From: Octopus vulgaris | Lineage: Eukaryota | NCBI GenBank assembly: GCA_951406725.2 | Contig: OX597825.1 | Coordinates: 28,458,001 to 28,522,000 of the forward strand | Reading direction: 5' to 3' | DNA: 64,000 bases | Shown here: positions 1 through 64,000 of the stretch, one piece after another | Numbering within the stretch: position 1 is the stretch's first letter | Layout of the letters: the number at the start of each line of letters is the position of its first letter | Position numbers and translations under genes: made by a program | Notes under the pieces: model-generated | What the model was told of the DNA's origin: nothing | Seen by the model: only the letters and a program-made list of their open reading frames with translations | Databases searched by the model: none

Positions 1-1628
1 GATACATCGTTCTTTGTGTCAATGCTTTTTACACTGAACCACACGCCTTTCCTTTTCAAATACGGAACTAATATTCCATTGTTGATATCATTTACAGCAA
101 GTTGAATGAAAGTATTAACGTGAGAATCAACGTTTTCTCCAGAACCACTGTAGTGAAGATCTCCAAGGTGGACAATTGAAATATTACCTCGGACACTAAA
201 TTCTGGCGTTGCATATCTAACGGTGCCATTGGTTGAAGATTGAAATATTAATTTTACCTTGTCAATTATCTCGCATATTGATAGGTATATTACAGACCTT
301 CCCCTTTTTAATTTACAAACAGTATCAGAAGATATACAAACTCCGCTTGGGATAGTAACATACATTAAAGGTTGATCTGAATCTGGCCCAGAATATATTC
401 GACGCCCATCGCTATCCAACGCAATAAGAGAAAATCCACCAGGGAGGTAGGTACTTACTGACATAGGGATTCTTTTCGTTTTGGGATCTCGAATTTTATT
501 CCATCTTTCCGCCACTATTTTATCGAGAACTAATTTCGATATATGCTGAGCCTCGATTCTCATTAAAGACGTGAAAACCATAGGCAATATATTCACCTGT
601 TTCGCACCTGTCACACGAGTGAACATAAAATATTTGCCATTATCTGAAACTTCATAGTGATCGAGATCGATATAGCAAGACGGACAAGATGGAATTCTAG
701 TAAAAGGATCACGTGCCATTGTCATCGTTATGTTTAACTGAAAATTATGGACTGCATCTAAAATTCGAATAGTTCGGAAAACAACTTTACCCTTCACCGC
801 TTGTTTACGAATAGACAAATCTCGTGTGTTGAGATGTAGCAAAAATTCATCAGCGTCCAGCGTAACATCTGTCATAGCTAAAATCATTTCTCTCTTTTTG
901 TCGGCATAGAATTTCTTATAGTCATACGGAACTGTTAATATAACAAATGCCACTGAATCAAGGCCATCTTCTACTCGTTTATTGCTGCTATCCCGAATTT
1001 CGACCTCAACATCGAAATTATGGTTCGCTTTTACTGATGCTGGAGGTTGTTTGGTAATTCTCAAATGATGTGCAGGAACTGTAATGCGTATTGGATTAGT
1101 ATCAGTTTTTGCGTGATATTTGGGGACCTCAATTCTCAGCACACGTGGGCCAGGCGGTAATATTGTATGTTCATGGTAGATCCAGTCAATTATTATTTCT
1201 CCTTTAAATATTTCAATGTTCAATTGAACTTTAGAATTCGGTGACCCACACCGGGTTTTCGCATATTCTCTATTTAATCTCTCCGGATAACCCAGCCACC
1301 ATGCTGTTTTCTGACACAATTTACCTCCACTCTCAGCCCAAGTATCTGAATGGGAACTGTTTTCGGCTGTTTTAACATCCAGTGATGTCACTTTTGCTGT
1401 TATGTTTGATGTTGGCTTCGGTGATAACAGAGCCCCGTTCTTTAATTGTATCACGGCAAATATTGGTCTGCTAATCGTTTGATTTAGTGGGACAGAATAG
1501 TAGAGATCCAGTGGATTAGAAGGAATGCTACTTGGGGGAAAATACTCTCCTTTAAACTTAATAATATATTTCCCATCCTTTAAAGGCAAAAAACTGAATA
1601 GTATAAAAAGCAAACGTAAAAGTTTCAT
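1..1628 (-). CDS. Receptor guanylyl cyclase paralog A1, 5' part only (runs off left edge): signal peptide, beta-rich modules, start of ANF-receptor-like domain
   Basis: Colinear with 29455-31082 at a constant 29454-bp offset. Manual translation from ATG 1628 gives MKLLRLLFILFSFLPLKDGKYIIKF...; no stop seen in the translated parts. Absent from the ORF track, presumably because no stop lies in the window. Confidence 0.88.
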   Translation of the reverse strand, partial: MKLLRLLFILFSFLPLKDGKYIIKFKGEYFPPSSIPSNPLDLYYSVPLNQTISRPIFAVIQLKNGALLSPKPTSNITAKVTSLDVKTAENSSHSDTWAESGGKLCQKTAWWLGYPERLNREYAKTRCGSPNSKVQLNIEIFKGEIIIDWIYHEHTILPPGPRVLRIEVPKYHAKTDTNPIRITVPAHHLRITKQPPASVKANHNFDVEVEIRDSSNKRVEDGLDSVAFVILTVPYDYKKFYADKKREMILAMTDVTLDADEFLLHLNTRDLSIRKQAVKGKVVFRTIRILDAVHNFQLNITMTMARDPFTRIPSCPSCYIDLDHYEVSDNGKYFMFTRVTGAKQVNILPMVFTSLMRIEAQHISKLVLDKIVAERWNKIRDPKTKRIPMSVSTYLPGGFSLIALDSDGRRIYSGPDSDQPLMYVTIPSGVCISSDTVCKLKRGRSVIYLSICEIIDKVKLIFQSSTNGTVRYATPEFSVRGNISIVHLGDLHYSGSGENVDSHVNTFIQLAVNDINNGILVPYLKRKGVWFSVKSIDTKNDV

Positions 1629-1829
1629 ATTTCTTTTCGAATATTTTCGAAGCTTTGACTTGTGTTATTTTACAATTTCCGTTTATAGCAGGAATATATC
1701 TTCCGTTGGCGTTTAAAGAATGCCGCTTCTTTGGTAAATAGCAACAACGGCGTCTTTTCCAAGTGACAATATCATAACAAATCATACTCAAAATTTACCG
1801 TCTTGCACACTTTAGTTTGTCTGTCTGTA

Positions 1830-4420: not shown

Positions 4421-5482
4421 CACGACAGGTGTATGAAAAGTTTTGAGCCTAATCTAGAAACGGGGCTGCTAGGTAGCTGAAACGATATTTTCTGCTAAGT
4501 ACAGTTTTTTCGGGGTATTCTTGCTCATGTCCATGGTTCTGATATTTTAATTTTGTTTTGTTTCAGATATTTGAATAAAAAAGTGTCGAGCTTACAAGGA
4601 AAATGGAAAAAACTGAGTATCACGCTATCACAAAGTGCCTTCATTTGAATGGCAGGACTCCATCATAAATCCTTGAAATTATGGAGAGAACCTTAACAGA
4701 CAATACTCCTTCATATGCAATAGTCAAACGCTGAGGAAATGAACTCCAGCGTGGCAGGGAGAGTGTGGAAGATGATGCCAGACCAAGGAGACCTCCAACT
4801 GCAACCACCGAGGACAACATTGACCTTGCTCTTGGTATGATAATGTAAGATCGTCGAATATCATGTGAGATAGCCGAGAGACTGGACATCTCAACTGAAA
4901 GAGCAGACAACATTCTGACAAAAGAACTTGGGTTCTCAAAGGTTTCTGCAAGGGGTGTCCCTCACTTTTTGACCCCCGAACAGAAACGCACCAGGTGCAT
5001 TTTGCTCACGAGCAATCTGGAACTGTTTGAAGCTGAAGAAGAAAATTTTCTTGCTCGCTTTATTACTATGGACGAAAGATGGATTCATTACTACCAGCCT
5101 GAAACCAAAGAACAATCAAAGCAGTGGAAGCACACGTCTACTCCTACCCCAAAGAAGGCCAGGGTCATTCCGTCAGCTGGCAAGGTCATGGAGGAGTCAT
5201 TTTTTTTTATTCTCAAGGTGTCTTGCTAATCGATTACCTTGAAAAGGGTCACACCGTGACAGGGCTGTATTATTCTCAGCTACTGAAACGCCTCCGAGAA
5301 GCAATCAAAGAAAAGAGGCCGGGAATGCTCACCAGAGGAGTCCTTTTTCCTCACGACAATGCTCCAGCCCACATCTCAGTGGTTGCCATGGCAGCAATTC
5401 GCAATATTAGATACGAACTTATTCCCCATCCGCCTTATACGCCAGACTTAGCCCCGTCTGACATTCATCTATTCCCCAAAAT
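4420..5482 (+). mobile_element. Degenerate mariner (DD34D) transposon, 3'-truncated
   Basis: MEKTEYHAI start at 4603; ITMDERWIHYY, HDNAPAH and HPPYTPDLAPSD motifs; stops and frameshifts; flanked by (TA)n. Confidence 0.9.
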
Positions 5483-26018: not shown

Positions 26019-29000
26019 TCACTTAAATTTGTGTTTAGAAATTCTCAAAGCGAGAGATTGATCCGGCAATATTTTTTTGAAGGTGTCTTTGCCCCAAAGC
26101 CAGTAGGTTGTCATCATCCCTCGTCCTTTCACATTTATCTGGCCTCTTGATTCCAAGGCATATCCCCCTAATTCTTCAAGAATGCCAGCTGTAGTCTCAC
26201 TCACTTGAATTCGCAGGGCATAACAACTGGACTCCATCCTCGAAGCTGTGTTCACAGTGTCTCCGAACAAAAAATACCGAGGCATAAGTTTACCAACCAC
26301 ACCGCTAACCACTGGTCCTGAATGTATTCCAATTCGTAATTGTAAAGTAGATTTTGGCATATGTGGTATTTCAAACACCGTCACCGTTGACATCAGATCT
26401 AAAGCCATTGTTGCAATTTCTCCAGCATGGCGATTCTCATTCTTCTCTGGGAGACCACTCACCACCATATATGAGTCACTGATAGTTTCTACTTTATAAA
26501 CATCATAATCATCGAGAACTTTGTCGAATGCATTATAAATCTCATTCAAAAAGTCCACAACCTCGAATGCTTTACTCTCGTTGCAAATATTGGAGAAATT
26601 GGTGACATCGCTAAAGAATACACTGACACATTCAAAATACTCTGGATAAATTTTGTTTCCTTCTCTTATGTCGTTCGCTACTTTCCTTGGAAGCATTTCG
26701 CCAAGGAGCCTTTCTGCTTTAGCCTTGCTCTTTTTAAGTTCTTTTGTTCTTTGAATGACAACAACTTCTAAACTACTAGAATACGTCTCCAACCGATCAA
26801 TTAAATTATCTTTAAACTCACCTTTCCCTGGATGTATTTCTGTAAGCATTTGATGAATTGTACCGAACACAGGCCTCGCTAAAGGTTCATCCTGCCAACA
26901 TTGTGCAATCATTTTGGCAAATAACTCATGAGTGGTTGTATTTGTCGGGAAAAGTTCTTCTTTTATAATTGGTCTTGTGTAAAGCATGGCCTTTCCACCG
27001 ATATCTTCCCAAATTCGCCGTATTGCCTTGCTAGATTCATATGTTATTAAACCTATAATTTCTTTTACTGATAAATAATAGAGTTCGTATTTATAAGGGG
27101 GCGCTCTAGTAATAATTTCACTTGTGACTATTGCGAATGAATAAACATCACCAGGCTGTGTACCAGATTTGATTCCATCTAAATCTGAGACATTTTTTAA
27201 CAATTCAGGAGCTGTCCAGAATAGCTCTTTCTTGCTGTGAACTGATTTCGTAATCCTCTTCTCCCCAAAACGAATAATATTTGCCCCAAAACCAGTGAGG
27301 CGTACGGTCCACCGATTGTTTAATAAACAGTTTGAAGATTTCAGACGACCGTGGGACTTGATATCTGTTTTGTTGTGAATAAATTCCATACCACGACATA
27401 TGTCTTTCAGAAAGGAGAACCGGAATTCCCATCCAAGATCAACTGCTTCATTTTGTAAAATATCTTTTAGACTTCCCTTATCGAGGAATTCGACAAACAG
27501 ACTGACATTGGGTTTCACCAGACAAGCGCCACCATATTGAATAAGGTTCTCATGTCTAAGTTTAACCAAGCTAACCATTTCGAGAATAAGAGCTTCATTT
27601 TTGCTATCTATTGTACTACTGTTAATGAATTTTACATACCATTCTTGTCCTTTCCATCTGTATCTCTGAATCATGGATGCACATCTGCTGTTATAAGGAA
27701 ATGAGACATGGCTTGTCTCATATATTTCAACAGTTGACCAATCGACAATCCAGTCAGTATTAGCGAGAGCTGCTCGTTTTTGCCTGTGTTCTATTAATTT
27801 TGTAATAATGAAATACACGAAGAAGCTTGATATTAAAATAGCTGCAATAGTTAATATGATGTATCCGACATGCACATCACAGTATTTCCCTGTGTAAATC
27901 CATGTGTGACAACGACACTCAAACGGTTTGGAACATGTCCCATATTTGCATTTGGTGCAATTTGCCTTTTCGCAGTAGGGGCCAACATAACCCTCTTTAC
28001 ATATGCATTCTCTTGGTTCTATGCAATGACCATTGTCACAGCCACACTCCACAATATGACATTTTGCACCTTGGTACCCATCTTTGCATTTGCATTTGTC
28101 TTTTGAAATACACGTACCAGTATCGAAAATAGTTACATCCTCGGGGCTTACCAGTTTTCTCCCGCACGGCTTTTTACAAAAGAAAGGTGGTATGACCTTC
28201 TCAGTCCTCATTATCTTAACTGGAGGCCAACTTTCTCGGGGATTTCTAATCAATCTTTGTGTGATTATATCAATCATGCCAGAATAAGACCAATATCGGC
28301 GTAAGTTATATCGAGTAGAATGTGGTAGTGTGAGTGGAGCTTCAATGTCAAATCTTTGGTAATCTCCTTTTGCAGAATATGGGATCTCTAGTTGGGCAGT
28401 GTTGTTGATTTTTTGGAAGCACCTTATAAATTCTGTGACTCTTTCTTCACCTGAACCTGTCCGATTTGAACGAGGATTTATATGAGCTAAAGATCCGAAG
28501 TAACCAATACGGTTCCCATGTCTATCAAGTTGCAGATAAGAAGTCAAACCATGAATTTTAACTTTTCGTAATTCAGCAACTTGTTGTTCTCCAGTCGCTG
28601 TCGTTTGATGGCGGATGATTTGCGCCAGCATGGCTGCATAAAGATGCACAGCATCGTATCCAAGCCCCATTCTTGCACCAATATAGTTGGGTCTGTAGCT
28701 TACGCTTCCGCCTTTGTATATAGTTTTGTCGGCTGCAAACCAATTACCGAATATTCGAAACCAGTCAGATGAACTATAGCCGCTTATATTATATTGTTCA
28801 CTAAACAAATTTGTACCTGCAAATGCATGAGTGCATTTCACTGTACCATTGCATACTCCCTCATCATCAAATGGGAATTGCCTGGCATATTCACCAAATA
28901 AAACCCATTGAAAACCATGTAACGCAGAGATGCCAGTCAAATATGCATCATGGAATACATAAGGTTGAATAAACTTAGGCGCAAATAAAAATATTATCTT

Positions 29001-31082
29001 ACAACCTGAAGCGGCAGTATCTAACATTTCTGCCGTGAAATGCTTAGCAAACATACTTTTTTCATCTATATTCTTTAGAACCGGAAGGACAATATCTGCA
29101 ATCAATTTGATTCCATATTTATTCATATAAACGTAAAAGAGTGGGCTGACGTGAGTGTCGTGGTAACGCATTATTAATATTTGAAACCATTTCCGCTCTT
29201 TCGTAGCGAGAAGTACTGAGTTGATGAGAGAGTCTTCCGTCCAACAAATCCTATTGAAATATTTGTATCTTTGGATGCTGGAGAAATCACCTCCAATGTT
29301 AGCTATTGAAATAAATGGCAAACGTCCTTTCAGAAGCAATGGGTATACGGCTTCAGTGATCTCTAATGACACGCTACTGATCACTAAACGTATACTATCA
29401 TAACGAAGCAAATTAATTTCTGAAGTAAAATACATTAATTTTTTGTATGCAATCGATACATTGTTCTTGGTGTCCACGCTTTTTACACTGAACCACACGC
29501 CTTTCTTTTTCAAATACGGAACTAATATTCCATTGTTGATGTCATTTACAGCAAGTTGAATGAAAGTATTAACGTGAGAATCAACGTTTTCCCCAGACCC
29601 ACTGTAGTGAAGATCTCCAAAGTGGACAATTGAAACATTACCTCGAACAGTAAACTCTGGTGTGGTATATGAAATTTGTTTTTTACCGTGAGGGTATATC
29701 GTTAACTTTACTTTGTCAATTACCTCACATATTGATATATATATAATAGCTCTTCCTCTTTTTAACTTAGCATATTTATCAGATGATACACAAACATCAA
29801 CCGGATCTGTTAGAAAAAATAATGAACGATCAGAATCTGGCCCTGAATATATTCGATGATCACTGCTATCCAACGCAATAAGAGAAAATCCACCAGGGAT
29901 GAAGGAACTTAGTAATATAGGGATTCTTTTCGTTTTGGGATCTCGAATTTTATTCCATCTTTCTTTCACTTTTTCATCGAGAACTAATTTCGATATAAGC
30001 TGAACCTCGATGCTTATTAAAGACGTGAAAATCATAGGCAATATATTCACCTGTTTCGCACCTGTCACACGAGTGAACAGAAAATATTTACCATCATCTG
30101 AAATATGATAGTGATCAAAATCGATATAGCAAGACGGACAAGATGGTATTCTAGTAAAAGGATCACGTGCCATTGTCATCGTTAAATTTAACTGAAAATT
30201 ATGGACTGCATCTAAAATTCGAATCGTTCGGAAAACAACTTTACCCTTCACCGCTTGTTTACGAATAGACAAATCTCGTGTGTTGAGATGTAGCAAAAAT
30301 TCATCAGCGTCCAGCGTAACTTCTGTCATAGCTAAAATCATTTCTCTCTTTTTGTCGGCATAGAATTTCTTATAGTCATACGGAACTGTTAATATAACAA
30401 ATGCCACTGAATCAAGGCCATCTTCTACTCGTTTATTGCTGCTATCCCGAATTTCGACCTCAACATCGAAATTATGGTTCGCTTTTACTGATGCTGGAGG
30501 TTGTTTGGTAATTCTCAAATGATGTGCAGGAACTGTAATGCGTATTGGATTAGTATCAGTTTTTGCGTGATATTTGGGGACCTCAATTCTCAGCACTCGT
30601 GGGCCAGGCGGTAATATTGTATGTTCATGGTAGATCCAGTCAATTATTATTTCTCCTTTAAATATTTCAATGTTCAATTGAACTTTAGAATTCGGTGACC
30701 CACACCGGGTTTTCGCATATTCTCTATTTAATCTCTCCGGATAACCCAGCCACCATGCTGTTTTCTGACACAATTTACCTCCACTCTCAGCCCAAGTATC
30801 TGAATGGGAACTGTTTTCGGCTGTTTTAACATCCAGTGATGTCACTTTTGCTGTTATGTTTAATGTTGGTTTTGGTGTAAACAGAGTCCCGTTCTTAAAT
30901 TGTAACACGGCAATTATTGATTTGCTAATCGTTTGATTTAGTGGGACAGAATAGTAGAGATTTAATGGATTAGAAGGAATGCTACTTGGGGGGAAATGCT
31001 CTTCTTTAAACTTAATAATATATTTCCCATTATTTGAAGGCAAAAAATTGAATAATATAAAAAGTAAACGCAAAATTTTCAT
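26019..31082 (-). CDS. Intronless receptor guanylyl cyclase paralog A2 (~1687 aa): signal peptide, 3 beta-rich modules, ANF-receptor-like domain, 3 EGF-like repeats, TM, kinase-homology, coiled coil, cyclase
   Basis: Single 5.06-kb ORF. Likely start MKILRLLFILF (M57 of the tracked ORF). Motifs: LAVNDINN, GYDAV, C-rich EGF repeats, TM VGYIILTIAAILISSFFVYFII, HGRLKSSNC, WTAPE, FSDV, YKVETISD, GDTVNTASRMES. Confidence 0.95.
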   Translation of the reverse strand: MKILRLLFILFNFLPSNNGKYIIKFKEEHFPPSSIPSNPLNLYYSVPLNQTISKSIIAVLQFKNGTLFTPKPTLNITAKVTSLDVKTAENSSHSDTWAESGGKLCQKTAWWLGYPERLNREYAKTRCGSPNSKVQLNIEIFKGEIIIDWIYHEHTILPPGPRVLRIEVPKYHAKTDTNPIRITVPAHHLRITKQPPASVKANHNFDVEVEIRDSSNKRVEDGLDSVAFVILTVPYDYKKFYADKKREMILAMTEVTLDADEFLLHLNTRDLSIRKQAVKGKVVFRTIRILDAVHNFQLNLTMTMARDPFTRIPSCPSCYIDFDHYHISDDGKYFLFTRVTGAKQVNILPMIFTSLISIEVQLISKLVLDEKVKERWNKIRDPKTKRIPILLSSFIPGGFSLIALDSSDHRIYSGPDSDRSLFFLTDPVDVCVSSDKYAKLKRGRAIIYISICEVIDKVKLTIYPHGKKQISYTTPEFTVRGNVSIVHFGDLHYSGSGENVDSHVNTFIQLAVNDINNGILVPYLKKKGVWFSVKSVDTKNNVSIAYKKLMYFTSEINLLRYDSIRLVISSVSLEITEAVYPLLLKGRLPFISIANIGGDFSSIQRYKYFNRICWTEDSLINSVLLATKERKWFQILIMRYHDTHVSPLFYVYMNKYGIKLIADIVLPVLKNIDEKSMFAKHFTAEMLDTAASGCKIIFLFAPKFIQPYVFHDAYLTGISALHGFQWVLFGEYARQFPFDDEGVCNGTVKCTHAFAGTNLFSEQYNISGYSSSDWFRIFGNWFAADKTIYKGGSVSYRPNYIGARMGLGYDAVHLYAAMLAQIIRHQTTATGEQQVAELRKVKIHGLTSYLQLDRHGNRIGYFGSLAHINPRSNRTGSGEERVTEFIRCFQKINNTAQLEIPYSAKGDYQRFDIEAPLTLPHSTRYNLRRYWSYSGMIDIITQRLIRNPRESWPPVKIMRTEKVIPPFFCKKPCGRKLVSPEDVTIFDTGTCISKDKCKCKDGYQGAKCHIVECGCDNGHCIEPRECICKEGYVGPYCEKANCTKCKYGTCSKPFECRCHTWIYTGKYCDVHVGYIILTIAAILISSFFVYFIITKLIEHRQKRAALANTDWIVDWSTVEIYETSHVSFPYNSRCASMIQRYRWKGQEWYVKFINSSTIDSKNEALILEMVSLVKLRHENLIQYGGACLVKPNVSLFVEFLDKGSLKDILQNEAVDLGWEFRFSFLKDICRGMEFIHNKTDIKSHGRLKSSNCLLNNRWTVRLTGFGANIIRFGEKRITKSVHSKKELFWTAPELLKNVSDLDGIKSGTQPGDVYSFAIVTSEIITRAPPYKYELYYLSVKEIIGLITYESSKAIRRIWEDIGGKAMLYTRPIIKEELFPTNTTTHELFAKMIAQCWQDEPLARPVFGTIHQMLTEIHPGKGEFKDNLIDRLETYSSSLEVVVIQRTKELKKSKAKAERLLGEMLPRKVANDIREGNKIYPEYFECVSVFFSDVTNFSNICNESKAFEVVDFLNEIYNAFDKVLDDYDVYKVETISDSYMVVSGLPEKNENRHAGEIATMALDLMSTVTVFEIPHMPKSTLQLRIGIHSGPVVSGVVGKLMPRYFLFGDTVNTASRMESSCYALRIQVSETTAGILEELGGYALESRGQINVKGRGMMTTYWLWGKDTFKKILPDQSLALRISKHKFK

Positions 31083-31899
31083 ATTTCTTTTCGAAGCTTT
31101 GACTTGTGCTATTTTACAATTTCCGTTTATAGCAGGAATATATCTTCCGTTGGCGTTTAAAGAATGCCGCTTCTTTGGTAAATAGCAACAACGGCGTCTT
31201 TTCAAATCGATTAAATGAATGAAAATAAATTCAAAACCCTCCACGTCCATAGCTGCATGTACGAGCTGTATGTATATGACTGCATGTATGTGTCTGTATT
31301 ACTATACCTGTGCATGTGTGTATCTATGTGTGTGCATGTGCGTGTGTGTATCTGTGTGTGTTAATGCATGTGTGTGTGTGTGTGTGTGTGTGTGCTTGTG
31401 AGTCTGTATGTGTGTAAATGTAACAATGCTATAAATGGATAATTATGTCATTACCACGGAGACTTTTATGCTCTGGGCACAAAACGACAAATAATCATTT
31501 TATCCAATGCACCAAAGTGTCGTGAACATACATGGATGATATTGGTAATCCACGGCCTGAAATTCTTCCGGCATCGAATCGAATTTTTTAGTTGACATCA
31601 AATCAGATCTCACACAAATGTTTGCAAAAATTTTTTTCCGCGAGATACACTCTGCCAACGAAAATCTGATGACGTTAAAATGGAGTGTGGGTTAACTCTA
31701 TAAGCCAAAACAATCCAGTACAACTATCATACATGTAAATCTGTTAATATTTTCAAATTTTCAAGTCTTATGAAGTCCCAAATTTAGACAGATGATTTTT
31801 GCCCAAGGTAAACTCTGCTTCATTAATTATTGTTTGTATTTCTTACCTACGTATACCCTTGATGTATTAGAAGAAAATGTTGTGAGCCTTGTCTCTGTT

Positions 31900-45487: not shown

Positions 45488-48400
45488 ATGACAATTGCAT
45501 GCCTCATTCTTATCTCTACTTGGATGTTTGTGACAGGACAATTGGAATTATCATTTCTACAATTTCACGAACCTCCCGCAATTATACCCGATGATCCTTC
45601 AAAGTTATACTATTCAGTGCCACTCAATCAAATGATCAGCAAACCGATCATTGTCGTTGCCGTTTATTCAAACGGGACACCTTTTTCTGAGGGAGAAGTC
45701 AATACGACGGCTACAATAGACAGCTATGCTGTTTCGCCATCTGGCGAGATTAATAACAAAGATACTTGGGCAGACAGTGGCGGCCAACTGTGTCAGAAAT
45801 CAGCATGGTGGTTGAATTATCCGGAGCGATATAACAGACATCTTGCGAAAACTCGTTGTCATACACCGCATTCTTCCATTCTAATGAAATCACGAATTTT
45901 TAATGGAAAACTCATATTTGATTGGATTTACCATAAACATACCATTGTACCTCCATCCATGCGAATGTTCAGGATCGAAATACCAGATTATAAAATATAC
46001 GTCGACTCTTTCCCAATATTTGTAACCAAACCTGCACACCGGTTAGTTGTAACGAAACCACCACCTGTAACAGTAATGGCTAATCACGATTTTGATGTTG
46101 AGGTTGAAATAAGAGATGAAGAAGGAAATACTCTCATAAATGGTCTTGATTCGGTAGCAATTGTGGAAATGACAATTCCTTACAATTATAAACGTTTCTA
46201 TGCTGACCCAGAGAGAGAAATGATGATTGATTACACTAAAATTCGAATGGATGGAGAGGATGTAATAATTGATTTTAAAACACGAGATATAATAATGCGT
46301 CAACAAGCAAATTATGGTAAGGCAAAATTTACTGGAGTTCGAATTTTAGACGTTACAGAAAATTTGCAACTAAATATTACTTTAACCATGGCAAGAGACC
46401 CATGGAGCAGAATTCCTGCTTGCTCAGAATGTTTCCTTGACATCGAACGTGCAAGACAGTTGTCCAGTGACAGAAAGTTTATTACTTTCCAACGATTAAC
46501 AACTGAGGAAGAGGAAAAGATTCTACCTGTTGTCTTCACGAATAATTTCTCAGTACATTATCAAATTCTGAATAAAGTTGATATGGACACCTCATCAAAA
46601 AGTATGTATTCTAAACTTAAAACTAATGAAAATGTTGTAGAGGTGCCTATTAGTTGTCCTCTACTTAACGGCTTAAGTATTTTTGCAATGGATATGAAAG
46701 AACGTCGGATCTATTCAGGTCCTCACTCCACATTACGCCTAAATATTAATACAATCCCAAAAGATATATGTTTGTCAAAGGACTACACTAGGAATATGTC
46801 AGAAGGAAAAGCGCTCGTATTTGTATCTATATGTGAGGTAGTCAACTCCGTCAAACTGATAATAACTTACGATGGTCCACCTACTGTTACTTACAGAACT
46901 CCAGCTTTTCGTATAATAGGAAACATTACAATTGGACATTTTGGTGACCTTCGATTTAGTGGTGATGGAAAGGAAATTGACTCACATATCAATTCTTTTA
47001 TACGATTCGCAATCAATGATGTTAATAATGGTATTATTGTCCCAGAATTAAGAAAGAAAGGATTGAAATTATATTTGAAGTCGTATAATATTCCAAACGA
47101 AAAATCTGCAACCTATAGAAAACTTGGGGATTTGGAAACTATTTCAACTAATATTCATTTGGTTATAAGTTCCATTCCAGGAAATGTTGCTAATGTTCTT
47201 AGTCCGTTCATAGTGAAGTTAAGGATACCTTTTATTTCGACGATCGATTCTACTAGAGAATACATCGATAAAGATATATACCCATTGTATAATAGTATAA
47301 GTTGGTCAGAGGAGGCGTTCTATAATTCAGTGTTTCAATGTGCTAAAGATAGGTTTTGGACTGACGTTGTAATCCTTCGATATCACGATATTAATTTAAC
47401 TGGTTTATTCTATTCTGTGGCTATCAAATACAAAATTAACTTACGCAATGAATTTGTCTTTGGGGCAGTAAAAGATTTAAAACTGAAGAACTTGTATGAC
47501 AGGAAGCTGAAATTATCGTTGGAAGCAGTGAAAAGAACTAACTTGAAAATAATCTTTCTGTTTGCTCCATTCCATATACAGCCAATCGTCTTTCGAGAAG
47601 CCTATCTTATGAACCTTTCTTCTCTGCATGGATTCCAATGGGTTTTAATGAAAAAATACGCGCGAGAGTTTCCATTTGAGAACCATTCGGTTTGTAACAA
47701 AAAATTAGAATGCACATTAGCTTTTACTGGAACCTACCTCTTTGATTCGACCTACAATGTATCGGGTTACCAAACAGATAGTTGGAAACGAGTTCTTAAT
47801 TATTATTTTAAAGAAGACCGTGTACTTTACAAAGGTGGAAGAGTTCGTTATAGATCCTTTGAAATAGGAGCGTTAATGGGATTGGGTTATGACGCCGTGC
47901 ACCTTTACGCTAAAGCGTTAGCCATACTTCTCAATAAACAACTAACACTTAACGGTGCGAAGGTTAATTGGCTCATGCGCAAGATAACTATACATGGACT
48001 AACAGATAAAGTATCTTTAAATGCATACGGTGATAGAATTGGTTATTTCGGTTATCTGGCCCAAGTTAACCCAATCCCACGTTGGCCATATTTGCCGAAA
48101 TCTAAAGTTATAACTTACGTAAAGTGTATTAAGAGATCGGAAGACGGTATTCAATTAGAAATACCTTATGAATCGAAAATACTTCCTCACAATAAAACTG
48201 CGGCACTGGTAGCATTTCCTGTCGGTAAGGTACATAACACTAGACAATACATATCTTTATCGGGGATGGTTAGTCTCAATACACAAAAAATGATGCCAAT
48301 AGAGGGTGAAGATTGGCCGCCAACCATTTTTATTCGGACAGAAAGTATAGTTCCACCATATTATTGCGTTCATGCGTGTGGTGAAAAGTTAAAAGACCCC

Positions 48401-50533
48401 GGTAATATCAATGTTTTTGATGGAGGAATATGTCGTCCAGATGACAAATGCGAATGCTTTGAAGGATTCGAAGGGAGGCATTGTCACACTGTTCAGTGCC
48501 ATTGTGCACACGGCCGTTGCAATAATGAAGGTTCTTGCATATGTAATCCTGGTTATACGGGTCCCTCTTGTGGAGCAGCAATTTGTGAGGATTGTAATTT
48601 TGGTGTATGTGTAAAACCAGGAGTATGTGAATGCACTACTATAGTACATTTCGGTGAAAATTGTGCTATTCATATTTCATCCATCATTGTTCCAATATTA
48701 TTTGCAGCAATTCTTCTCATTAGTATATCTTATGTCGTGGCAGGAATAACTAGCTCGAAGACGAAAAGTATAATCTATCAAGACTGGATGATTGATTGGG
48801 ACAACGTTACTGTACCTGAAAAATTAGGTATGGTAGGAGAATCCAAGGGAATAATTAACAAAACGGTTGCAGCTTATAGATGGGACAATGAGAACTGGTA
48901 TGTGAAAAAGATTAATAGTAAGACAATTCCTCCTGATGATAAAAAGATTATTTCAGACATGGTCAAGTTAACTAAAACTAGACATTATAATCTGATTCGA
49001 TACGGTGGATGCTGTTTGACTTATCCTAACGTCAGTTTGTTCATGGAAATTGCTGACAAGGGGAGTATAGCGGATGTACTTGCCAATGAAACATTTGAGA
49101 TCGGATGGGAATTTGGATTTTCATTTTTAAAAGATATATGTTGCGGAATGGAATATTTGCACGACAAATCTGAAATCAAAAGCCATGGACGTCTGAAATC
49201 TTCCAACTGCTTGGTTGATAAGCGCTGGACTGTACGTCTGTCAGGATTTGGTGCACCGTCTCTTCGTTATGGCAGCTACAGAATCCCAGAGTCTGAAGAA
49301 ATGTCTGATTTAAAAGATCTTTTTTGGACCGCACCCGAACTACTGAGGGATGACACAAATCTCGATGGAGTAAAGTCGGGCACACCGCAAGGAGATGTCT
49401 ATTCATTTGCTATCATTGCGTGTGAAATTGTGACGAAGGCAAAACCATACCATTACGAACTGAAACATTTAAGTGAAAAAAGCATTTTAGATCTCATTAA
49501 AGATTCACACTCACGGGCCAATGAAGATATACGACGTGTATGGGAGAGTATTGGTGGAGGTAAAATGATTTTTACAAGACCAATTTTAAGTGAAGATTTA
49601 TTACCAAACAGTAATCTATCTAAGAAGCTGTTTAAAAAAATGCTCGAAGAGTCTTGGAATGAGAAGGAATCTTCACGACCGACTTTTAATAAGCTTAGCA
49701 TCATTCTAAATCAAATGTACCCCATAAAAGGAGAACTTATAGATAAATTAATCCACCTCTTGGAAACTTATTCCAATAATTTAGAAATGGTTGTAATAGA
49801 AAGAACCAGAGAACTAGAAGAAAAAAAAGCTAAAGCTGAGCAGCTATTGGGCCAGATGTTGCCCCCGAAAGTAGCTTGTGAACTGAAACAAGTTGGTGAA
49901 GTGATACCGGAATTATTCGAAAATGCCACGGTATTCTTCAGTGATATCGTGAATTTTGGCCGAATATGTAAAGAAAGTAAACCAATGGAAATCGTTGATT
50001 TTTTAAATGAAGTTTATAAATTATTTGACTCAGTGGTGGACGGCTATGATGTTTATAAAGTGGAATCCATCAGCGATTCCTACATGGTAGTTAGTGGTAT
50101 TCCAGAAAAGAATGGTGATCGCCATGCAGGAGAAATTGCAACAATGGCTTTAGATCTGATGTCATATGTTACTCTACTCCATGTTCCCAACACGGAAAGT
50201 AATGTGCTACAATTACGAATTGGAATGCATTCCGGCCCGGTAGTAAGTGGCGTGGTGGGGAAACTATTGCCTAGATTTTGTCTATTCGGAGACACCGTCA
50301 ACACAGCTTCCAGAATGCAGTCTAGTTCTTATACCTTACACATTCAAGTGAGCGAGAATACTGCAGCAATTCTTGATTCTTTAGGCGGTTATAAATTAGA
50401 ATGTAGAGGGGAAAGAGAAGTAAGAGGTCGCGGATTAATGACAACGTACTGGCTGTGGGGTAAGGACACATTTATGAAAGAATTCCCTGATATATCCCTG
50501 GGAGTCCCTCTCTCACAACACAAATTCAAATAA
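45488..50533 (+). CDS. Intronless receptor guanylyl cyclase paralog B1 (1681 aa), same architecture as A2
   Basis: Single ORF with signal peptide MTIACLILISTWMFVTG, FAINDVNN, GYDAV, 3 EGF repeats, TM, HGRLKSSNC, FSDI, YKVESISD and PRFCLFGDTVNTASRM. AATAAA overlaps the stop (50529-50534). Confidence 0.95.
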   Translation: MTIACLILISTWMFVTGQLELSFLQFHEPPAIIPDDPSKLYYSVPLNQMISKPIIVVAVYSNGTPFSEGEVNTTATIDSYAVSPSGEINNKDTWADSGGQLCQKSAWWLNYPERYNRHLAKTRCHTPHSSILMKSRIFNGKLIFDWIYHKHTIVPPSMRMFRIEIPDYKIYVDSFPIFVTKPAHRLVVTKPPPVTVMANHDFDVEVEIRDEEGNTLINGLDSVAIVEMTIPYNYKRFYADPEREMMIDYTKIRMDGEDVIIDFKTRDIIMRQQANYGKAKFTGVRILDVTENLQLNITLTMARDPWSRIPACSECFLDIERARQLSSDRKFITFQRLTTEEEEKILPVVFTNNFSVHYQILNKVDMDTSSKSMYSKLKTNENVVEVPISCPLLNGLSIFAMDMKERRIYSGPHSTLRLNINTIPKDICLSKDYTRNMSEGKALVFVSICEVVNSVKLIITYDGPPTVTYRTPAFRIIGNITIGHFGDLRFSGDGKEIDSHINSFIRFAINDVNNGIIVPELRKKGLKLYLKSYNIPNEKSATYRKLGDLETISTNIHLVISSIPGNVANVLSPFIVKLRIPFISTIDSTREYIDKDIYPLYNSISWSEEAFYNSVFQCAKDRFWTDVVILRYHDINLTGLFYSVAIKYKINLRNEFVFGAVKDLKLKNLYDRKLKLSLEAVKRTNLKIIFLFAPFHIQPIVFREAYLMNLSSLHGFQWVLMKKYAREFPFENHSVCNKKLECTLAFTGTYLFDSTYNVSGYQTDSWKRVLNYYFKEDRVLYKGGRVRYRSFEIGALMGLGYDAVHLYAKALAILLNKQLTLNGAKVNWLMRKITIHGLTDKVSLNAYGDRIGYFGYLAQVNPIPRWPYLPKSKVITYVKCIKRSEDGIQLEIPYESKILPHNKTAALVAFPVGKVHNTRQYISLSGMVSLNTQKMMPIEGEDWPPTIFIRTESIVPPYYCVHACGEKLKDPGNINVFDGGICRPDDKCECFEGFEGRHCHTVQCHCAHGRCNNEGSCICNPGYTGPSCGAAICEDCNFGVCVKPGVCECTTIVHFGENCAIHISSIIVPILFAAILLISISYVVAGITSSKTKSIIYQDWMIDWDNVTVPEKLGMVGESKGIINKTVAAYRWDNENWYVKKINSKTIPPDDKKIISDMVKLTKTRHYNLIRYGGCCLTYPNVSLFMEIADKGSIADVLANETFEIGWEFGFSFLKDICCGMEYLHDKSEIKSHGRLKSSNCLVDKRWTVRLSGFGAPSLRYGSYRIPESEEMSDLKDLFWTAPELLRDDTNLDGVKSGTPQGDVYSFAIIACEIVTKAKPYHYELKHLSEKSILDLIKDSHSRANEDIRRVWESIGGGKMIFTRPILSEDLLPNSNLSKKLFKKMLEESWNEKESSRPTFNKLSIILNQMYPIKGELIDKLIHLLETYSNNLEMVVIERTRELEEKKAKAEQLLGQMLPPKVACELKQVGEVIPELFENATVFFSDIVNFGRICKESKPMEIVDFLNEVYKLFDSVVDGYDVYKVESISDSYMVVSGIPEKNGDRHAGEIATMALDLMSYVTLLHVPNTESNVLQLRIGMHSGPVVSGVVGKLLPRFCLFGDTVNTASRMQSSSYTLHIQVSENTAAILDSLGGYKLECRGEREVRGRGLMTTYWLWGKDTFMKEFPDISLGVPLSQHKFK

Positions 50534-58163: not shown

Positions 58164-64000
<5,837 letters not shown>

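Follow-up and report, generated by a model that had tools for sequence, protein, structure and literature searches.

Patchy gene conversion and islands of old divergence in a tandem cluster of predicted receptor guanylyl cyclase genes of Octopus vulgaris

Two neighboring genes of Octopus vulgaris, here called A1 and A2, are nearly identical over one stretch and strongly different over another, which raises the question of how tandem copies of a gene can be held together in one part and apart in the next. A2 and the 5' part of A1 lie in the stretch of 64,000 nucleotides analyzed here (the window). A sequence-only reading of the window had proposed that gene conversion homogenizes part of the gene, whereas a hypervariable third module is swapped or diversified and is a candidate specificity determinant. 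The contrast that it described is real. The peptides it quoted from A1 and A2 are found in the sequence, in frame and without stops; its estimate of about 32 differences in about 73 residues at 190-415 corresponds to 32 of 76 residues and 75 of 228 bases (A1 codons 405-480), or, within codons 406-477, where the quoted peptide span lies, to 31 of 72 residues; and its handful of differences over 720-1400 amounts to 5 of 681 bases and 2 of 227 residues (A1 codons 77-303). Divergence along the pair is non-uniform at silent positions as well: of the four-fold sites, 7 of 17 differ in the module versus 2 of 94 in the tract (Fisher p 1.7e-5). When the run lengths of identical four-fold sites were tested by permutation, all three pairs of A copies reached p 5e-5, the lowest value that 20,000 shuffles allow.

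Searching the 2.8-Gb assembly with A1 residues 337-542 matched 12 places, three of A type, eight of B type and one on contig C18, and a second assembly search with the tract as the query again found exactly three A copies. Eleven copies form a cluster on contig C12 that includes the window; A0 lies to the left of the window, followed by A1 and A2, and the B-type copies are on the opposite strand (Table 1). A0, A1 and A2 are intronless, full-length and open (1689, 1693 and 1687 residues), and Octopus vulgaris, O. bimaculoides, O. sinensis and Argonauta all contribute named relatives of the genes. A Pfam search of A2 and B1 recognized ANF_receptor, EGF, kinase-homology and guanylyl cyclase domains (PF01094, PF07714 and PF00211 above cut-off); each of the two has a single hydrophobic span with the ANF_receptor ectodomain, kinase-homology and cyclase regions in one chain; in A2 the order is D1-D3, ANF_receptor, EGF repeats, membrane span, kinase-homology and cyclase. 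NPR1 matches a cluster receptor at E 2e-62, and a Pfam search with the first 542 residues of A1 gave no match. By sequence, we classify the A1/A2 cluster copies as predicted receptor guanylyl cyclases, i.e., cell-surface cGMP receptors.

The cyclase domains of the A and B copies carry FSDxxNF and E(T/S)(I/F)S(D/A) compared to FSDIVGF and ETIGD in NPR1, with serine replacing the glycine before the second aspartate, and they keep the N and R motif, TVNTA.R. The copy on C18 and its Argonauta relative keep the first motif pair, without N and R. The A2 cyclase (window 26100-26660) has phenylalanine at the cysteine position of NPR1 RYCLFGD, and those of B2 and B4 (L017, L019) have alanine instead of the second aspartate.

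Table 1. Positions of the receptor gene copies and their parts, in window coordinates except for the row that begins with L016.
Feature	Position	Strand
A1, 5' part, codons 1-542 of a 1693-residue intronless predicted receptor guanylyl cyclase	3..1628	-
A1, whole gene, remainder left of the window	L016:2547-7628	-
Flagged module, A1 codons 405-480, C-terminal two-thirds of D3, unconverted	190..415	-
A1 D3, residues 361-482, predicted Ig-like beta-sandwich directly before the ANF-receptor domain	183..548	-
A1 D2, residues 184-360, predicted Ig-like sandwich with an insertion, mostly within the converted tract	549..1079	-
A1 D1, residues 22-181, predicted beta-sandwich, C-terminal two-thirds within the converted tract	1086..1565	-
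Near-identical tract, almost certainly converted, A1 codons 77-303	720..1400	-
A2, complete, intronless, 1687 residues from an ATG aligning with that of A1	26019..31082	-
A2 counterpart of the flagged module	29643..29870	-
A2 counterpart of the conversion tract	30174..30854	-
B1, intact B-branch paralog, 1681 residues, type-I D3	45488..50533	+
B1 D3, codons 357-479 (B8-type D3 instead in B3, B4 and B7, right of the window)	46556..46924	+
B2, 5' part of an intact B-branch paralog	60070..64000	+
B2 type-I D3	61138-61506	+

The cluster is mis-annotated in public gene models: P0001 runs from the C-terminal half of A2 into A1, and P0003 and P0004 likewise fuse adjacent copies, joining the end of one copy to the next. 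The A copies have in common no more than ~125-150 bases before the coding region and 5-200 bases after it (window 1629-1762 and 31083-31206; L014), whereas B1, B2, B3, B4 and B7 have kilobases of common flank, which indicates that A copies are old duplicates and B copies recent unit duplications. At window 4600-5480 lies what we take, by its motifs, to be a broken mariner-like transposase, and open frames at L013:5878-7254 and L023:3-983 resemble what we presume to be non-LTR reverse transcriptase fragments.

The near-identical tract is almost certainly the product of gene conversion, as the sequence-only reading had proposed. Its silent sites are homogenized, and the three assembled A tracts are close to one another without being identical (5, 14 and 17 differences, those of A1 being 5 from A2 and 14 from A0). 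Which copy is the odd one out changes along the gene, from A1 at codons 51-100 and 351-400 to A2 at 701-900 and 1201-1300 and A0 at 1051-1100 and 1401-1450. Trees of the D3, ANF and kinase-cyclase regions disagree with one another (P0008, P0018 and P0019, 3 of 19 rows, left out). In each of four sequencing runs, which come from four studies and carry two organism labels, the tract is represented by one contig and the module by three. Depths of the tract contig versus the sum of the three module contigs were 167 versus 176, 47 versus 52, 137 versus 160, and 149 versus 120; these are Logan contigs, which lose minor variants and whose depth does not measure copy number, and the one-versus-three pattern is independent of depth. 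Run X1 may be the window's own sample, and run X16 is less clean, with a tract depth of 9 versus 15 for three module contigs. A rise in GC3 within the tract was sought and not found (0.31 versus 0.16-0.41 elsewhere).

Homogenization of this region extends beyond one species. Run X18, which carries another organism label and comes from a more distant organism, yielded a single tract contig that differs from A1 at 36 of 607 bases, and its depth of 92.5 is about double that of each of two flanking contigs (46.7 and 51.4), showing that the more distant species carries its own homogenized tract. The relative P0002 pairs with A1 in the ANF tree (93/95) and is 84-85% identical in the tract to A0, A1 and A2 alike; a protein tree of D1-D2 fails to place it outside the A copies.

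Copies that lie 29 kb apart could also come to be nearly identical over 680 bases if one sequence had been pasted into several of them during assembly, and no read or contig covers the whole stretch. We consider such an artefact, which the sequence-only reading had named as a possible refutation, very improbable, given that the runs from four studies repeat the pattern of one tract contig and three module contigs, that X10, X11 and X18 each contain one long tract contig, and that the assembled tracts differ among themselves. Just as improbable is an explanation without conversion, in which strong purifying selection on D1-D2 holds the tract. D1-D2 is better conserved than D3 between species (85% in the tract versus 57% in D3 for A1/P0002), but homogenization reaches the silent sites, and distances in the tract are 6% of bases to the X18 organism and 15% of residues to P0002, compared to <1% between A1 and A2.

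The flagged module is ordinary unconverted divergence, one of several islands and not a hotspot. The term hypervariable does not suit the A1/A2 comparison, in which silent divergence equals that of other unconverted stretches and dN/dS is below 1: dS is 0.85 and dN/dS 0.41 (bootstrap 0.18-0.72) in the module, 0.93 and 0.31 at codons 590-720, and 0.97 and 0.30 at codons 1000-1150. Four-fold sites differ at 7 of 17 in the module versus 23 of 45 in other unconverted stretches (p 0.57). A codon model of the three A copies gave a module dN/dS of 0.49, below 1 (2dlnL 7.6); the A0/A1 module alone gave 0.98 (0.52-1.94). Sliding-window identity and dN/dS, proposed with the original observation as a check, uphold the contrast between module and tract without singling out the module, since residue differences at codons 637-712 (38) and 995-1070 (35) exceed those of the module, codons 852-927 equal it, and 7.8% of 76-codon windows over the whole A1/A2 gene reach or exceed it. 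Since A1 runs out of the window after codon 542, the diverged stretches beyond the first had been out of view.

The A1/A2 module also shows no mark of a swap, and exchange with a distant donor probably did not take place. Import of the A1 module from the B branch was ruled out, as A1 and A2 are both 41% identical to B1. Contigs of the A1 module from the four runs, spanning both organism labels, differ from the window at 0, 0, 1 and 1 of 329 bases, and the two differences are one silent change and one Ile to Thr. Given a dS equal to that of other islands and this near-invariance across runs, the A1/A2 difference is best read as old, fixed and paralog-specific. The first third of D3 is homogenized between A0 and A2 (96% over residues 355-404).

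A swap of the third module did occur in the same domain of the B branch, outside the window, where B3, B4 and B7 carry a D3 swapped in from paralog B8. Their divergence from B1 is 16-26% of bases in codons 351-500 and 0-9% outside them; D3 forms a single sharp peak (~25% of bases) on a 0-7% background, and B3 and B4 also have a lesser rise, to 9%, at codons 951-1000. Their upstream flank is of B1 type for >1.8 kb, and B8 matches it over only ~350 bases. At sites within codons 352-477 that can be assigned to B1 or B8, they are B8-like at 74 of 89 (B3), 76 of 90 (B4) and 75 of 93 (B7), and across codons 478-700 they are B1-like at 128, 128 and 127 of 134, respectively. The right breakpoint falls at codons 477-492, within 15 codons of the domain edge (D3 ends near codon 479); upstream of codon 352, B1 and B8 are too alike for the left edge to be located. 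In the D3 tree the two B types are split by 0.64 changes per site (100/100). The dN/dS of D3 between B1 and B8 is 0.89 versus 0.47 and 0.43 in other islands (bootstrap p 0.03 and 0.02, uncorrected), and one of ten pairs, B4/B8, reached 2.96 (1.16-26).

B3, B4 and B7 (L018, L019, L022) each contain a single shift by one base, within a run of G or A, and are free of in-frame stops. The shifts may be sequencing error or slippage, and with one in each copy of this assembly the D3 chimeras may be dead or mis-called. An in-frame deletion of 1041 bases (B1 nt 1923-2963) is common to B5 (L020) and B6 (L021), as is a stop at codon 1175. Further stops and shifts occur in B5, the first 1068 bases are missing from B6, and both copies are probable pseudogenes.

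The divergence maps of the A copies and of B1/B8 agree (Spearman 0.60 over 27 windows, above all 26 circular shifts). Both branches spare D3, a part of the ANF domain at 600-700, and a stretch from the EGF repeats to the membrane span. The Argonauta pair P0006/P0007 has undergone conversion with a different map. Its D3 is homogenized (97-100%), the two are identical across most of the ectodomain and diverged in the EGF, membrane and kinase parts, and the map does not follow that of A (Spearman 0.10), so D3 is not always spared. A bivalve and a centipede have the architecture from D2 onward as well, and a snail and another bivalve have its N-terminal part. Distant relatives of the Ig-like N-terminal region, which has no Pfam family, include P0015, P0017-P0019, P0021, P0033, P0035 and P0043 from other molluscs and the centipede. 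Several of these records end in apparent intron read-through, hinting that the gene may have introns outside cephalopods.

An AlphaFold2 model of A1 residues 22-489, built from a 24-row alignment (mean pLDDT 91), predicts three beta-sandwiches, D1, D2 and D3, which were delimited by structural matches, with the limits of D1 taken from the strands of the model. The flagged module adjoins the ANF-receptor domain, and two cysteines of D3 are invariant in all nine aligned copies. Matches of D3 by VIA-align to a Runt domain (Z 8.9, rmsd 2.5, 96 residues), a beta-galactosidase domain (Z 8.1) and filamin domains (Z 7.6) show a predicted Ig-like fold and give no functional hint. Foldseek with the three-domain model returned only generic beta-sandwich chains (query TM-score 0.15-0.25), and the ESM Atlas returned unnamed clusters and leads to SMCHD1-Ig, Big_1 and filamin, all under 0.9. 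A single-sequence fold of D3 with the ANF domain (pLDDT 33.5) was left out of the structural reading. Changes in D3 appear to avoid the core inferred from the alignment, with 0 of 9 A1/A2 changes being radical in 35 always-hydrophobic columns compared to 19 of 33 elsewhere in D3, and no radical change among any of the A copies in these columns. Variable positions coincide between branches, 23 being variable in both A and B, 19 in A only, 6 in B only, and 28 in neither (p 0.001).

D3 is the least conserved region between likely orthologs (57% for A1/P0002, 55-63% for B1/P0008). Its maximum-likelihood dN/dS is 0.64 in the A branch versus 0.33-0.44 in other diverged regions, and 1.20 in the B branch versus 0.48-0.63, with 0.91 in the barely diverged D1-D2; the B value is not significantly above 1 (2dlnL 0.7), and B5 and B6 were left out of the codon models. 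A search with a D3 alignment among proteins of 65-223 residues found none of 1085 candidates at E 0.001, so the view of D3 diversity in other species is drawn from P0002, P0006-P0008 and contig counts.

We consider it likely that patchy conversion of A0, A1 and A2 has left islands of old divergence that are kept for copy-specific outer surfaces. The tandem genes are homogenized in patches, the flagged stretch is one of several unconverted islands holding old divergence under purifying selection, and the islands would persist since copy-specific outer surfaces are worth keeping. The conversion step is common to a neutral alternative that differs only on why the islands persist: they might be the fastest-drifting parts of the ectodomain, now below the identity needed for pairing, with differences that are not copy-specific. 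This alternative is a serious possibility, although we judge it to fall short of probable. It agrees with the module dN/dS below 1, the low conservation of D3 between likely orthologs, the homogenized D3 of Argonauta, the frameshifts of the swapped-D3 B copies, and a weak tendency for silent divergence to rise as conservation of the protein falls (Spearman -0.37, p 0.058), and conversion ended by accumulated substitutions is standard theory in the accessible text of PMC3924837. It sits less well with D1-D2 windows of moderate deep conservation (0.39-0.48) that are fully homogenized, with the single sharp D3 peak of B1 versus B3, B4 and B7 that stops so close to the domain edge, and with a D3 dN/dS above that of the other B1/B8 islands. 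Whether selection against conversion, rather than plain drift past pairing identity, keeps D3, ANF 600-700 and the EGF-membrane stretch apart is to us nearly an even call, leaning slightly against selection.

Stronger claims for D3 gain from some of the same results. That it is an exchangeable, positively selected specificity cassette, with the A1 module swapped or driven apart from that of A2, would fit the genuine swap in the B branch, the highest maximum-likelihood dN/dS of the diverged regions tested in both branches, the B4/B8 value, and the coincidence of variable positions. We find this unlikely: the A1/A2 module has the dS of other islands, a dN/dS below 1, and almost no variation across four runs and two organism labels, the ANF 600-700 and EGF-membrane islands are diverged equally or more, the B D3 value is not significantly above 1 and recombination within D3 can inflate it, and coinciding variable positions are expected of any surface. 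Similarly doubtful is a broader version in which D3 would be an interchangeable recognition cassette, D1-D2 and the cyclase would be kept uniform for a shared partner, the C18 copy, and shuffling of D3, ANF 600-700 and the EGF stalk would yield new ligand preferences. On our preferred reading of patchy conversion with islands kept for copy-specific surfaces, D3, ANF 600-700 and the EGF-membrane stretch may set ligand or partner preference, and D3 is a plausible candidate specificity determinant, as are at least two other spared regions.

The mechanism is known from other gene clusters, as described in the accessible portions of the papers on protocadherins and opsins (PMC1852091, PMC3924837, PMC9068888). 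Clustered protocadherins of fugu, zebrafish and mammals undergo regional gene conversion (PMC1852091), and cephalopod protocadherin arrays offer a further comparison (PMC9068888, PMC6339937), all as far as the accessible text of these sources extends. There, as here, tandem receptor paralogs have ectodomain parts that are >99% identical, silent sites included, and spared domains that are proposed to carry specificity. The octopus receptors differ in being predicted guanylyl cyclases, in having N-terminal D1-D2 as the homogenized part and several spared parts (D3, ANF 600-700, EGF-membrane), and in lacking a GC3 rise in the tract, a mark used for protocadherin conversion that is supporting and not universal. 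Exon 5 of the red and green opsins is a divergence peak under conversion, according to the accessible part of PMC3924837, and B1 versus B3, B4 and B7 resembles it in having one dominant D3 peak over a homogenized background; unlike the opsin case described there, the B peak was imported from an older paralog, and A1 versus A2 shows many broad islands instead of one narrow peak. A dN/dS above 1 in the peak, the opsin-type criterion, was found neither in the A module (0.49) nor in the B D3 (1.20, not different from 1).

Like NPR1/GC-A and GC-C (PDB 9bcv, 8fx4), the octopus receptors combine an ANF_receptor ectodomain, a single membrane span, kinase-homology and cyclase regions; unlike them, they have ~460 extra N-terminal residues with three predicted Ig-like domains lacking a Pfam match, EGF repeats, intronless genes and altered cyclase motifs. 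Relatives bear the labels 'speract receptor-like' and 'ANP receptor 1-like', which are automatic and no evidence of ligand. A sperm chemoreceptor role was considered and set aside as an automatic label only, papers on squid and coral sperm (PMC5636881, PMC6787079) describing no such architecture in their accessible text. PMC1435932 makes no mention of EGF, immunoglobulin, gene conversion, intronless or tandem, and, in the accessible text of each, PMC6878697 does not name such an architecture and PMC9068888 does not mention cyclase. A literature search, mostly of the main texts of open papers, found no paper on the cluster or on conversion in receptor guanylyl cyclases; gene-family tables in subscription papers or supplements could list the genes.

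Since the mechanism is textbook, the A1/A2 contrast is by itself ordinary. Phylogenies based on D1-D2 or the cyclase will give wrong dates for the duplications of these copies, and the fusion of neighboring copies in public gene models is a warning to users of these models. If the doubtful cassette reading were true, it would amount to an octopus receptor repertoire with a previously undescribed three-Ig ectodomain family. More broadly, two old branches of an unstudied cluster of predicted cGMP receptors spare the same three outer regions, which provides a map of parts to swap in assays. Among them D3, which has moved between copies as a whole domain in the B branch and is repeatedly spared, is a fair first target.
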